Shown piece after piece: positions 20,372 to 45,833 of a stretch of DNA of 64,000 nt. Position numbers and translations under genes: made by a program. The stretch is from assembly GCA_965204745.1 (NCBI GenBank), contig OZ242010.1:3744001-3808000 (forward strand), given 5' to 3'. The first letter of the stretch is position 1; every line of letters begins with the position of its first letter. The stretch is from Candidatus Latescibacterota bacterium. Its GTDB lineage: Bacteria > Latescibacterota > UBA2968. The notes below the pieces were generated by a model. That model was not told the DNA's origin and ran no database searches. It worked only from the letters and a program-made list of their open reading frames with translations.

Positions 20372-20473
20372 CAGTAGTCAGTAGTCAGTAGTCAGTAGTC
20401 AGTAGTCAGTAGTCAGTAGTCAGTAGTCAGTAGTCAGTAGTCAGTAGTCAGTAGTCAGTAGTCAGTAGTCAGT
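20372..20473. repeat. Heptamer microsatellite (CAGTAGT)x14.5
   Basis: Perfect tandem array, followed by a REP-like hairpin at 20474-20512. Confidence 0.97.
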
Positions 20474-28342: not shown

Positions 28343-28520
28343 GGTCTCTCAATAGTGTTGGGATGTTCACAGGGCTTCCCCGTCTTGTATCCTCACGTCT
28401 TATCCACCCGTGGCTAACCCCCATCTCCGCTTCCGCACCGCCGCCCAAGTGCGTGCCCCATCTCACCCTGCCCCGCCGCGTGCGTTTTGCCTTTCATCTG
28501 TATTCTTAGGCGAAGCGGGC

Positions 28521-28583
28521 CTCTTACCTCTTACCTCTTACCTCTTACCTCTTACCTCTTACCTCTTGCCTCTTGCCTCTCCC
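28521..28583. repeat. Heptamer microsatellite (CTCTTAC)6(CTCTTGC)2
   Basis: Read directly from the sequence. Confidence 0.95.
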
Positions 28584-42509: not shown

Positions 42510-44318
42510 TCAAACCCGATCCGCAATCGCCCCCCGCGGTTTTGGGCGGTGGAGCGGGCACTCGGCGGGGCATGATCGCTTGCAGGGGTATTGGTCATCC
42601 AATGATGCCCAAGCGCACGCCAAGGCCCGATCCAAGGTGATGTGAAAGCGATCCCTGCCAATGGCGTGGAGCATGCCCGCACGGTCGAGCGCGTCTGCGA
42701 TCTGCTTTTTGGTCCGCGCAAATAGCACTTCCACGCCGGCCTCGTGTAGCCGTTGCACCACGCGAATGAGCATGTCCTCGCCCGTGGCGTCGATCTCGTT
42801 CATCCCCTCGGCATCCACAATTACATAGCGCAATTTGGGGTCGCCGATCCGATCTAAAATGGCGTCTTCAAACGCGCCTGCACTGCCGAAGTACAAAGAG
42901 CCGTCAAATCGCATGGTGGCGATGGCATCGCACAATTCCAAGTCGTGTTCTATCGCGTCTCGAAACGCGCCGTCCGGATGCCGGGCTAGAAAGGCCACGC
43001 GCGGTTTCATGGTGCGGTAGAGGTACAGGACGAGGGACAGGGTCGCGCCGATCAAAATGCCCTTGTCGAGGTGGGGCGCGAAAATGAGGGTCAGCGCGAA
43101 GGACGAGAGGGCCACGATGCCATCGTGCTTGTGAACCCGCCACGCGCGCACGATGGGTTTGACGTGTAGCAACCCGGCCACAGACACCATGACGATTGCC
43201 GCCAAGGTGGCCAAGGGCATGTGGTACAAGAGTTGCGTGAAGAACAGCAGTAGCAAGATGACCACCAGCCCGGCGATGACAGACGCAAATCCGGTTTGAC
43301 CGCCTGCGCGCAAGGTGACTGTGGATCGCACAAACGAGCCGGAAACCGGAAAGCTCTGAAAAAAGCTGCCCGCGATGTTGCTCAAGCCCTGCGCGAGCAA
43401 TTCCCGATTGGCGTCGATGCGCTGGCGCGTCTGTGCGGCGATGGCCTTGGCGATAGAGATGGTCTCCAAATAGCCGATGAGCGCGATGGTGATGGCCGCG
43501 CCAAACAGGGTCGGCACGATGCCCCAGTCCATGCTCGGCACGGCAAAAGTGGGCATGCCTTGGGGGATGTTGCCCACGACCTGGCCGCCGTAATTGCGTT
43601 CAAACCCGATGAGCCACGACACCCCGGTGGTGAGCAGGGCGACGATCAGCACATTGGGGATTTGCGGGTTGACGCGCCGCAGTGCGAATAACAACGCAAT
43701 CGCGGACGCGCCCATGATCAAAGTGGGCGTGTGAAAGCCCGCTGAAATCACGTCCCACATGCGGAGTACGCGCTCGTAATGCGCCCCCCCGCGTTCTGCG
43801 CTGACGCCGAATAATTTGTCGATTTGAGACGTGCCGATGATGATGGCCGCGGCATTGGTGAACCCGAGCACGACCGGATGCGCGAGAAAGTTCACCATCG
43901 CGCCCAAGCGCAACGCGCCCAGCCCAAATTGCAACACCCCGACCATCAGGGCCAACAAAATAGCGTAGGCGATATACGCTTCTTCGCCCACGGATAATTG
44001 CCCTAATTCAGAGGCGACCATCAAGGCGACGAGCGCGACCGGGCCCGTGGAGAGTTGGCGAGACGACCCGAACAGCGCGCTGACCATAATGGGCACAAAC
44101 GAGGCGTAAAAGCCGTAATAAGGCGGCATCTCGGCCAGTTGTGCATTGGCCATGGCCTGCGGGATCAACACCAGCGACAAGGTGATCCCCGCCATGATAT
44201 CCGCACGCAAAACGCGCCCATCTTTGAGTTCGCCAATCCAACCGAGAAATGGCAAATACCGCCCAAGTCCATGCTGTCGCACCATCGCATTTCCCCATCC
44301 GTGATTGAGATGAGCCAC
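42510..44318 (-). CDS. sulP: SulP/SLC26 anion transporter with STAS domain
   Basis: IPQAMA, FGSSRQLSTGP, ELLAQGLSN, SGSFVRS and a STAS IDATG motif. Confidence 0.92.
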   Translation of the reverse strand: MAHLNHGWGNAMVRQHGLGRYLPFLGWIGELKDGRVLRADIMAGITLSLVLIPQAMANAQLAEMPPYYGFYASFVPIMVSALFGSSRQLSTGPVALVALMVASELGQLSVGEEAYIAYAILLALMVGVLQFGLGALRLGAMVNFLAHPVVLGFTNAAAIIIGTSQIDKLFGVSAERGGAHYERVLRMWDVISAGFHTPTLIMGASAIALLFALRRVNPQIPNVLIVALLTTGVSWLIGFERNYGGQVVGNIPQGMPTFAVPSMDWGIVPTLFGAAITIALIGYLETISIAKAIAAQTRQRIDANRELLAQGLSNIAGSFFQSFPVSGSFVRSTVTLRAGGQTGFASVIAGLVVILLLLFFTQLLYHMPLATLAAIVMVSVAGLLHVKPIVRAWRVHKHDGIVALSSFALTLIFAPHLDKGILIGATLSLVLYLYRTMKPRVAFLARHPDGAFRDAIEHDLELCDAIATMRFDGSLYFGSAGAFEDAILDRIGDPKLRYVIVDAEGMNEIDATGEDMLIRVVQRLHEAGVEVLFARTKKQIADALDRAGMLHAIGRDRFHITLDRALACAWASLDDQYPCKRSCPAECPLHRPKPRGAIADRV

Positions 44319-44387
44319 CTTTTGTGCCTTTTGTGCCTTTTGTGGCTAAACTTCCCTCTTGCGTCTCCCCTCTTGTATCTTGGAAGT

Positions 44388-44585
44388 AAGGGTTAATTAG
44401 GAGTTGCGCCCTCGTATCGAGATAAGCCATCTTGATGCCCGGCTCGGGGAAGGCCGGCCCCTCTTGAAGGCGATGACCTTGTAGGTAAGATAGGCCCCCC
44501 GACCGCCGGGTCTATGCCGAAGAGTATCTAAGCCCCTTGAGGCTGCATATACAAGACCGGTAGACTTGGCGTCAATGGTCGGGAC
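44388..44585 (+). ncRNA. Predicted bridge RNA (target-binding and donor-binding loops)
   Basis: Guides at 44456-64 (LTG), 44483-89 (RTG), 44521-29 (LDG) and 44549-55 (RDG). Each pair flanks a short hairpin inside a closing stem. RNA ends are approximate. Confidence 0.8.
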
Positions 44586-44640
44586 GCGACCCCGAGCGCG
44601 CACCAGATCCCTTACAACCCCCTCATCACAGGAGGCCCCC

Positions 44641-45648
44641 ATGTCGAAATCTCACCCCGCTTTTGCCGGCATTGATGTCAGTGCCCGCACGTTGTCCGTT
44701 GCCCTGTCCAGACCCGGACAAGCTGTCATGCAAGCGACCTTTGCCAATGATCCCCAAGCGCATAAGCGGTTGCTGAAGTGGCTCACGAAGGGCGGGCACA
44801 TGGTCTCTGTGTGCCTCGAAGCGACCGGGCTTTACAGTTTGGGGGTGGCCTTGGCCTTGCATCGGCATCGCCACACAAAGGTCATGGTCGTCAATCCCAA
44901 AGCGATGAGCAAGTACGCCCAAGCCTGCATGCAACGGGCGAAGACGGATGCGAAGGATGCGTTGTTGATCCTCGACTATGCCGAGCGCATGCCTTTTGTG
45001 CCTTGGCAAGCGCCGAGCGAGCAACGGCTTCAACTGCAAGCCCTCACCAGACGCATTGACCAACTCAAGCAGGAGATCATCCGCGAACAGAGCCGCAACC
45101 ACGCGCAGAGCTACCACATCCGCAGCACACGTCTCATCGCACGCGATATTCAGGTGAATATTCGACACTTCAAACGCCGGATTGCATACTTGGAAAGCCA
45201 AGCCCTCGATCTCGTTTTGCACGATGAGCCCCTCAAGCGTGCCTACCAACGCCTCTGCTCGACGCCTGGCATCGCGCAAACGAGTGCCTTGCGGCTCTTG
45301 GCCGAGTTGACCCTTTTGCCAGAGGAGATGCAACCGCCCCAGTGGGTCGCACATGCAGGCCTGGATCCCAAACCCAAACAATCCGGAACCGCCAATCCAC
45401 AAAGACGCATCTCGAAAACCGGGAATAAGTACCTCCGCCATGCCCTCTATATGCCTGCCTGGGTGGCCATCAGACACGAAGGCCATGTCAAAGCCTTCTA
45501 TGACCAACTCATCGCCCGCGGCAAGAAACCTTTGCAGGCTATCGTTGCGGTGATGCGAAAGTTGCTCCATTCGATCTGGGGCATGTTGCGCCATGACCAA
45601 GATTTTGAGGGCGAAAAATTCTATCGAATCACCCCGAAAACCCCTTGA
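44641..45648 (+). CDS. IS110 family recombinase/transposase
   Basis: DEDD residues in GIDVS, LEATG and KTDAKD; catalytic Ser in PKQSG; GNKYLRHALY and AVMRKL motifs. Confidence 0.95.
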   Translation: MSKSHPAFAGIDVSARTLSVALSRPGQAVMQATFANDPQAHKRLLKWLTKGGHMVSVCLEATGLYSLGVALALHRHRHTKVMVVNPKAMSKYAQACMQRAKTDAKDALLILDYAERMPFVPWQAPSEQRLQLQALTRRIDQLKQEIIREQSRNHAQSYHIRSTRLIARDIQVNIRHFKRRIAYLESQALDLVLHDEPLKRAYQRLCSTPGIAQTSALRLLAELTLLPEEMQPPQWVAHAGLDPKPKQSGTANPQRRISKTGNKYLRHALYMPAWVAIRHEGHVKAFYDQLIARGKKPLQAIVAVMRKLLHSIWGMLRHDQDFEGEKFYRITPKTP

Positions 45649-45664
45649 CCTTTTAAGAGAGTAT

Positions 45665-45700
45665 CTTGCCTCTTGCCTCTTGCCTCTTGCCTCTTGCCTC
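45665..45700. repeat. Heptamer microsatellite (CTTGCCT)x5
   Basis: Directly abuts the IS110 right end. Confidence 0.92.
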
Positions 45701-45833
45701 GTTAATCTGCTCAACGCAACCAGAAAGTGCAAGGAGAAATCCGCCTCCCTTAAAAACGCTACACGGAACCTCAATTTGTGTTATATTGTAAGCGCGTTCG
45801 CATTTTGTAAAACCATTAAAATGGGAGGATTGT

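Follow-up and report, generated by a model that had tools for sequence, protein, structure and literature searches.

An IS110-subgroup insertion sequence in a Latescibacterota genome with a predicted left-end bridge RNA and guides that track heptamer microsatellite target sites

In this study, we analyzed a 64-kb stretch of the genome of a Candidatus Latescibacterota bacterium (OZ242010.1, positions 3,744,001-3,808,000; hereafter the window), which is assembled as a single contig of 5.48 Mb, and focused on an insertion sequence (IS) flanked by two divergently oriented genes, which encode a SulP-family permease and a sodium:alanine symporter. Our analyses suggested that this IS is very probably an IS110-subgroup element that is still active or was so until very recently, and that its left end encodes a guide RNA aimed at the junction between two heptamer units of a host microsatellite. 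Coordinates refer to the window unless they are given as genome positions. The locus is organized as follows:

44318..44344, + strand: 9-mer array CCTTTTGTG x3 in the left flank (Tandem Repeats Finder), part of the host's composite intergenic repeats
44365..44373, + strand: left target half CTCCCCT plus core CT (44372-73)
44374..45664, + strand: element body, 1291 bp between two CT cores, with ends common to the full-length copies
44374..44381, + strand: left tip TGTATCTT, the right donor half TGTAT plus a -10-like TATCTT (44376-81); T1-T5 and T7-T8 invariant in an alignment of 24 sequences
44641..45648, + strand: recombinase gene, 335 aa plus stop, identified by Pfam domains and by matches to ISCro4 and IS621
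45645..45650, + strand: -35-like TTGACC, overlapping the stop codon, which would pair with TATCTT only once the ends join
45658..45666, + strand: left donor half AGAGTAT plus core CT (45665-66), read from the sequence and from the ends of all copies
45664..45700, + strand: heptamer array TCTTGCC x5.3 (Tandem Repeats Finder), whose first unit forms the right target half CT-TGCCT

A blastn search of the whole genome identified 52 full-length copies, comprising 37 at ≥99% identity, eight at 96.1%, one at 95.7%, one at 94.8% and five at 88.5-89.1%, together with about 14 further partial matches of varied age. The element bodies were identical in 30 of the 52 copies, and the recombinase gene was intact (335 aa) in 51, copy 3890251 being frameshifted. 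Every one of the 57 PF01548 matches in the genome came from this element family. The CT cores proposed by the initial annotation at 44372-73 and 45665-66 are in the sequence, and its expectation that other copies would share these boundaries was borne out, as all 52 end alike, the one exception being copy 5198951 with 1 nt inserted at its left tip. CT was present at both junctions in 52/52 copies; the additional shared T or TG belongs to both target and donor sequence and is not a duplication, and no target duplication was found beyond the dinucleotide core. Terminal inverted repeats were absent (left TGTATCTT..., right ...GAGAGTAT). The element begins with a non-coding left end of 267 nt, and only 16 nt follow the stop codon on the right. 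In addition, the CCTTTTGTG module was also found beside other repeats of the genome, and at genome 1121593-1124180 two copies (96.1% and 100%) lie head to tail with 9 bp (cttacctct) between them. The element was detected in two of 20 other same-genus genomes searched and in one of 16 genomes of the neighboring family. The element or part of it was also present in 20 public sequencing-run rows from eight studies, including sponge and marine metagenomes, all as contigs; four examined runs also contained the 96%- and 89%-type variants.

A left boundary placed 7 bp inward (CT at 44379-80) was considered and rejected, because the loop strings described below fit the outer boundary only; the empty sites it predicts, CCCCTCTTGTATCTT[AG]CCT, were found 0 times, versus 70 for CCCCTCTTRCCT. 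Stop-free stretches across the reconstructed empty sites of the 52 copies were tried as a test of intergenic location and dropped, being non-discriminating in a G+C-rich, C/T-rich context: the window copy scored 543 nt although it lies between two confirmed transporter genes.

The recombinase matched PF01548 (DEDD_Tnp_IS110, the RuvC-like N-terminal domain) over residues 9-154 (E 1.2e-24, 87.3 bits against a cut-off of 29) and PF02371 (Transposase_20, the C-terminal Tnp domain) over residues 203-287 (E 4.8e-20). Its only relatives with solved structures were the ISCro4 transposase (PDB 9t56, the best-scoring at E 7.6e-40 over residues 7-326, known by the depositors' molecule name) and the distantly related IS621 transposase of E. 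coli (PDB 8wt6-8wt9, E 5.8e-36 over residues 8-326). D12, E60, D103 and D106 align with D11, E60, D102 and D105 of IS621 (PDB chain numbering is offset by 2), and S248-G249 aligns with S241-G242, all of which are reported as essential (PMC11208158). The DEDD and Ser residues, previously described as intact, are indeed so at all five positions that align with IS621 catalytic residues. In public collections the recombinase bore no name, among 40 of the 91 members of its cluster.

The left end is predicted to encode a bridge RNA with two internal loops. According to PMC11208160, the first internal loop of the IS621 bridge RNA binds the target and the second the donor, the 3' side of a loop pairing with the top strand over 4-7 nt. 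Following the geometry in that source and in PMC11208158, the putative RNA elements are placed as follows:

44446..44500, + strand: predicted target-binding loop, with stems GGGG/CCCC and GGCC/GGCC and inner hairpin AAGG/CCTT
44458-64, + strand: left target guide CCCCTCT, repeating the last seven bases of the left flank
44483-89, + strand: right target guide AGGTAAG, reverse complement of CTTACCT and one transition away from the right flank CTTGCCT (45665-71)
44490-91, + strand: candidate handshake dinucleotide AT of the target loop, directly after the right target guide
44505..44570, + strand: predicted donor-binding loop with hairpin AGCC/GGCT (comparative folding)
44521-29, + strand: left donor guide AGAGTATCT, identical to 45658-66 (last 7 nt plus CT)
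44549-55, + strand: right donor guide ATACAAG, reverse complement of CTTGTAT (44372-78), i.e., CT plus the first 5 nt
44556-57, + strand: candidate handshake dinucleotide AC of the donor loop, directly after the right donor guide

All the strings and coordinates given by the initial annotation were found in the sequence, among them the match of GGCCCCTCT (44456-64) to the left target CTCCCCTCT (44365-73) at seven of nine positions; the last seven are contiguous, and the first G of GGCCCCTCT is part of the stem strand GGCCG. When the 268-nt left end was shuffled 200,000 times, the four guide strings arose by chance in 0.05, 1.1, 2.0 and 3.3% of cases, and as all four stand in this order, the pattern is not one of chance. 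RNAalifold yielded the two internal loops from 24 distinct left ends, of which this genome contributed seven and two sister genomes 17. Comparative folding was relied upon because the fold of 44385-44600 as a single sequence, with its weaker support (z = -2.84), pairs the guides with each other. It retains a stem around the donor hairpin, as had been claimed, but in place of the contiguous gtcta/tagac it backs GGTC/GACT plus TGCCG/CGGTA. A stem CCCGAC/GTCGGG around the donor loop competes with GGGG/CCCC, and each is 97.0% paired. As for the handshake bases, the AU of the target loop is the complement of A and T at donor positions 6-7, the arrangement of the IS621 handshake. The donor-loop counterpart, which begins with A here (target T7) and with G in sister genomes B (target C7) and C (target T7), pairs at position 7 only, its second base not pairing. 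By each defining feature that can be tested on sequence, the element belongs to the bridge-RNA elements of the IS110 subgroup; protein domains, catalytic residues, the predicted two-loop fold and guide geometry agree with its first description as an IS110 bridge recombinase of IS621-type architecture.

Importantly, the covariation between guides and flanks is the strongest evidence for the bridge-RNA reading. The 45 copies of the main family (≥96% identity, including the 96% subfamily) carry CCCCTCT and AGGTAAG. Their left flank ends in CCCCTCT in 40 of 45, or 41 of 45 if copy 5198951 is counted, whose register is shifted by its 1-nt left-tip insertion. Between AGGTAAG and the right flank the match was perfect in 24 of these copies and included one G:U or G:T wobble in 18 more. 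The 95.7% copy has guides TCCCTCT and AGGTGAG and the site TCCCTCT / CTCACCT. The five 89% copies have CGCCTCT or TGCCTCT together with AAGTAAG; their left flanks are CGCCTCT (three), CACCTCT (one) and TACCTCT (one), and the right flank is CTTACTT in four of five. In sister genome C (18 loci, 76-78% protein identity), the guides are CTCGCCTCT (CGCCTCT) and GGGAG, right flanks start with CTCCC at 16/18 loci, left flanks are CGCCTCT (5), CACCTCT (7), TGCCTCT (4) and TACCTCT (2), and the sites again lie in heptamer arrays. In sister genome B (seven loci, 80-84% protein identity), a guide AGAAAAG, or AGGAAAG at one locus, accompanies the right flank CTTTTCT at six of seven loci, with sites outside arrays by eye. 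More distantly, a 54% relative (G036) pairs GACGTTAG with CT-AACGT, and a 48% relative on a Gemmatimonadota contig pairs CCGTTAG with CT-AACGG. When guides were cross-tabulated against flanks, a class's own guides were the best for five of six target classes. The 54% relative (L072, L076, G036) showed a further peculiarity, with left junction AT-TGTAT, right junction TAT-CT-AACGT and thus different cores at its two junctions; its left target guide ends in AT rather than CT, which would fit a target core AT of which only the top strand's version was kept.

The target belongs to an extensive host microsatellite family. Counting as an array every run of three or more in-phase T[CT]T[CT]N[CT][CGT] units, we identified 698 arrays with 4045 units in the genome and none in 2 Mb of shuffled sequence, and 48 of the 52 copies have at least three heptamer-family units around the insertion point. 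We infer that the RNA is programmed for CCCCT-CT-TACCT, where a TCTCCCC unit meets a TCTTACC unit, and that CT-TGCCT is accepted at lower efficiency. Occupancy, measured by counting occupied and empty 12-mers genome-wide, was graded:

CCCCTCTTACCT (perfect, CTTACCT): 20 occupied, 5 empty, 20/25
CCCCTCTTGCCT (G:U wobble, CTTGCCT): 16 occupied, 65 empty, 16/81
CCCCTCTCCCCT (mismatched unit CC): 0 occupied, 45 empty, 0/45
TACCTCTTACCT: 4 occupied, 83 empty, 4/87
TGCCTCTTGCCT: 0 occupied, 241 empty, 0/241

The difference between CCCCTCTTACCT and CCCCTCTTGCCT (Fisher p = 7e-8) and that between CCCCTCTTGCCT and CCCCTCTCCCCT (p = 6e-4) support a wobble reading in which A is much preferred over G. The earlier proposal that the U in the right guide reads either A or G therefore stands in that CTTGCCT sites are used, and needs correction in that the two are read unequally. 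Likewise, the microsatellite target is real and narrower than proposed, being the TCTCCCC/TCTTRCC junction and not the CTCTTGC array as such. Other heptamers also occur in the window, including CAGTAGT x14.6 (20372-20473), ACTGACA, ACTGACT and CCTCTTA x8.7 (28520-28580); its microsatellites, 9-mers such as CCTTTTGTG included, span 4152-61523, and the genome is unusually rich in intergenic microsatellites. Heptamers and 9-mers often stand in a fixed order with hairpin repeats, sometimes as inverted arrays.

The ends of the element would also assemble a promoter. The claim that TTGACC (45645) and TATCTT (44376) would come to lie 18 bp apart if the ends joined is correct as to the placement of both strings; across the joined right end-CT-left end, the distance from TTGACC to TATCTT (44376-81) is 18 bp here and 17 bp in lineages B, C and D. 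Five lineages have a TTGACC-like box 13-14 nt inside the right tip, with differing spacer sequence, and the four of them whose left end is complete all show TATCTT at positions 3-8 of that end; in the 48% relative, the left end is cut by the contig end and the -35 box lies 13 nt from the right tip. A consensus scan of the integrated copy found no sigma-70-like site upstream of the RNA. This arrangement fits the split promoter described for IS110 elements in PMC11208160.

Taken together, we propose that a circular or copied-out form would join right end, CT and left end, that this junction would place TTGACC 18 bp from TATCTT, and that an RNA of ∼200 nt would be transcribed from about 44388. 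The second internal loop would hold the joined ends, with AGAGTATCT pairing to the bottom strand and ATACAAG to the top strand, and the first would hold the chromosomal site, with CCCCTCT pairing to the bottom strand and AGGTAAG to the top strand; CT-TGCCT would be accepted through an rU:dG wobble. The DEDD-plus-serine recombinase would then exchange strands at the shared CT. The RNA, the junction promoter, the circle and the catalysis are thus those expected of this element by analogy with IS621.

Several findings weigh against this bridge-RNA reading. None of the public sequencing runs recorded as RNA contained the element, and four public runs (of 24 listed, from four studies; contigs) compared at 90% likeness gave no sequence joining 45664-66 to 44372-74, although the missing end-to-end joint says little either way because contigs drop rare forms. 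A search of Rfam 15 over 44200-45800 (E up to 10) returned four chance-level matches, the best with E 0.98, far below gathering scores, and hence no hit to any bridge-RNA family. The left-guide match covers just seven of nine positions, while IS621 uses nine. Because T7 is common to target and donor, the first handshake base can also pair with cognate DNA, and cognate pairing of the handshake base slowed strand exchange in IS621, according to PMC11208158. Eight of the 52 copies deviate from their own guides beyond a wobble: in four the left flank is TACCTCT, which mismatches the guide at two positions; the right flank is CTCCCGT in two and CTTGCCC in one; and copy 602782 (94.8%) is a chimera with 89%-type guides in the 95.7%-type site TCCCTCT / CTCACCT. 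In addition to these eight, one 89% copy shows an A:C guide mismatch. In the alignment of 24 left ends, just two stem pairs change on both sides and the stems are mostly invariant. As most pairs never vary because these relatives are close, the 54% (G036) and 48% (Gemmatimonadota contig) relatives were added. In the resulting set, which comprises 15 sequences and five lineages, pairing holds for 97.0% of cells, compared with 31-54% when the partners are slid, and seven pairs show both-sided changes, against 2.5 ± 1.0 in shuffles (0/500 reach seven) and 0-2 when slid. Concerning the exceptional flanks, an RNA acting in trans may explain some of them, since donor ends are common to all subfamilies and ACGGGAG, present in truncated copies 2972661 and 845538, is the reverse complement of CTCCCGT. 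Half-matched insertion, reported for IS621 (10.64898/2026.08.31.748434), may be another cause. As for the circle search, backward joints in the four runs were found only within or between the flanking microsatellites (e.g., 45694 to 44354), and run X1 contains one contig that stops precisely at 45666 and another that stops at 44373, the behavior expected of contigs at the edges of repeats.

Other explanations have to be considered for the sites themselves and for the pattern as a whole. The copies flanked by TG might owe their flanks to slippage, in which case the guide would read CT-TACCT only, with no wobble, and a neighboring TACC heptamer would have been lost after insertion. Such arrays slip readily, TACC and TGCC units are mixed in many of them, a CTTACC unit lies further right in six of the 18 TG-flanked copies, and nearly all perfect sites are used (20/25). 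This explanation is nevertheless less economical, because the other 12 of the 18 have no CTTACC unit within their 45-nt right flank and because TCTCACC, with 633 units near TCTTGCC (719) in abundance, never adjoins the element, CTCACCT flanking no main-family copy. Besides, most TG-flanked copies must be recent because they are 100% identical to the master, and departures from the guides across lineages are mostly of the G/U-wobble type, such as CACCTCT against guide CGCCTCT in 7/18 left flanks of genome C, or locus L032, which matches AGGAAAG with CTTTTCT. We therefore regard slippage as an unlikely source of these flanks.

Target choice by the protein, or by the short homology T-CT-T between ends and target, would make the guide-like strings by-products. 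Donor and target do share TCTT (TCTTG at the TG sites), and the donor strings and element ends are constant in all lineages, so that covariation in the donor loop cannot occur. Against this, in subfamilies whose recombinases are 97% and 83-86% identical to the master, the targets diverge at just those positions at which the loop strings do, the four strings have the orientation, order and placement within the loops that were published for IS621, and each string is as rare in shuffles (0.05-3.3%) as described above; protein- or homology-driven choice appears highly improbable. We attach just as little credence to a dead relic whose copies were spread by duplication or recombination of repeat-rich regions instead of transposition. 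Although neither circle nor RNA was seen in public runs and one tandem pair lies 9 bp apart, 30 identical 1291-bp bodies stand in differing flanks with sharp ends at CT cores, 51/52 genes are intact, the ∼14 partial matches are of varied age, and the distribution is patchy, with presence in 2/20 other same-genus genomes.

Beyond the heptamer junctions, three truncated copies (genome 921772, 1263487 and 1433018) sit at (A/G)TTCCCC-CT, and their left guides end in CCCCCT while their right guides, (T/C)AGGAAG, are the reverse complement of CTTCCT. Their site lies just upstream of a repeat that resembles repetitive extragenic palindromic (REP) sequences, AGGCACAGGCGTAGCCTAC, present in 190 copies. 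At these copies the site reads CCCC-CT-TCCTCG in 161 cases, CCCC-CT-TGTATCT-TCCTCG in 16, GAGAGTAT-CT-TCCTCGC, an old right end, in one, and otherwise in 12 (examples: genome 415955, 1079923 and 3668590, with the additional 7 bp; 3877167, empty; 5088570, the old right end). The extra 7 bp, TGTATCT, equal the first five left-end bases plus the CT core. In the genome, CTTGTATCTT occurs 212 times, versus 5.9 expected by composition, and 166 of these are outside full copies; in the strictest pattern, 74 CTTGTATCTT precede another REP-like hairpin, of the form GGGCGAGCAC...GCATCGCCC-CTAC (CTAC reading GTAG on the opposite strand). TGTATCT is probably a scar that was left when the element was lost and that was then amplified along with the repeats. 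The loss would involve the TATCTT at left-end positions 3-8 and its counterpart at the right junction, with recombination or deletion between the two producing the scar. Genome-wide, no site has the form that a scar would take at the main family's current target (CCCCTCTTGTATCTT[AG]CCT).

Since truncated copies carry further guide pairs, this one genome would hold at least five target specificities: three at different heptamer junctions, and one at another microsatellite and one at the REP-like repeat, which would survive only as truncated copies. As a whole, the proposal that one lineage has had at least five guide specificities here, that TGTATCT is its 7-bp loss scar, and that many of the 166 CTTGTATCTT descend from such scars is put forward tentatively, and we would not expect it to hold in every part. 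If true, the bridge element also writes a heptamer into host repeats and destroys its own sites. Two odd left-end remnants were also noted, both breaking at ATCTT-type motifs: at genome 2089466, left-end positions 1-61 are joined at ccATCTT to the gtatcttt of the hairpin repeat, and at genome 2459527, TGTATCT TGTATCT TGGAAG is followed directly by TATCTTG. In sister genome C, the flanks contain a hairpin with different stem letters and the same preceding motif.

Among characterized systems, IS621 inserts at a site that lies in REP elements, and the IS1111 subgroup (seekRNA) shows RNA-guided target choice with a recombinase of the same superfamily and with its RNA downstream of the gene. In contrast to IS1111 elements, the element described here has its long non-coding stretch at the left (267 nt) and only 16 nt after the stop. 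With IS621 it shares both protein domains and the five catalytic residues, a predicted RNA that precedes the gene in the left end and has its target loop before its donor loop, CT in all four guides and a putative promoter split across the joined ends (PMC11208160), as well as a candidate A-U handshake after the right target guide matching donor A6 and T7 (PMC11208158). It differs in its distant protein, in a right target guide of 7 nt versus the natural 4, in a left guide with seven contiguous matching positions versus nine, in its copy number of 52, and in its target, a junction of heptamer-microsatellite units versus the 11-bp site ATCAGGCCTAC of IS621 (PMC11208160). ISPpu9 and ISPpu10 of Pseudomonas putida are described as IS110-family elements that likewise occupy multi-copy intergenic repeats, the former with seven copies in REP sequences and the latter in identical copies of one conserved intergenic sequence; the truncated subfamilies here resemble them in aiming at a REP-like repeat, whereas the main family uses simple tandem repeats and not palindromic units. 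Our literature search found neither this element nor any IS110 element at a microsatellite described, the supplements of IS110 catalogues, which may list it, lying outside that search; in the two preprints that contain the term, "tandem repeat" denotes duplicated cargo or duplicated elements. The earlier verdict that the element appears new is accordingly fair only for this member and its kind of target, the mechanism class having been known since 2024.

These observations provide a natural specificity series, in which hundreds of near-identical sites differ by one or two bases, 52 insertions have been made, and subfamilies have guides that differ by one or two bases. No assay is needed to rank perfect sites in vivo above wobble sites, and these above mismatched ones. 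The data suggest tolerance of rU:dG and rG:dT pairs in the guides, a point relevant to predicting off-targets of bridge editors. In addition to REP elements, simple tandem repeats can serve as a multi-copy landing pad. Microsatellites mutate fast, so that sites are continually made and destroyed, and this site turnover may drive the guide turnover seen here.

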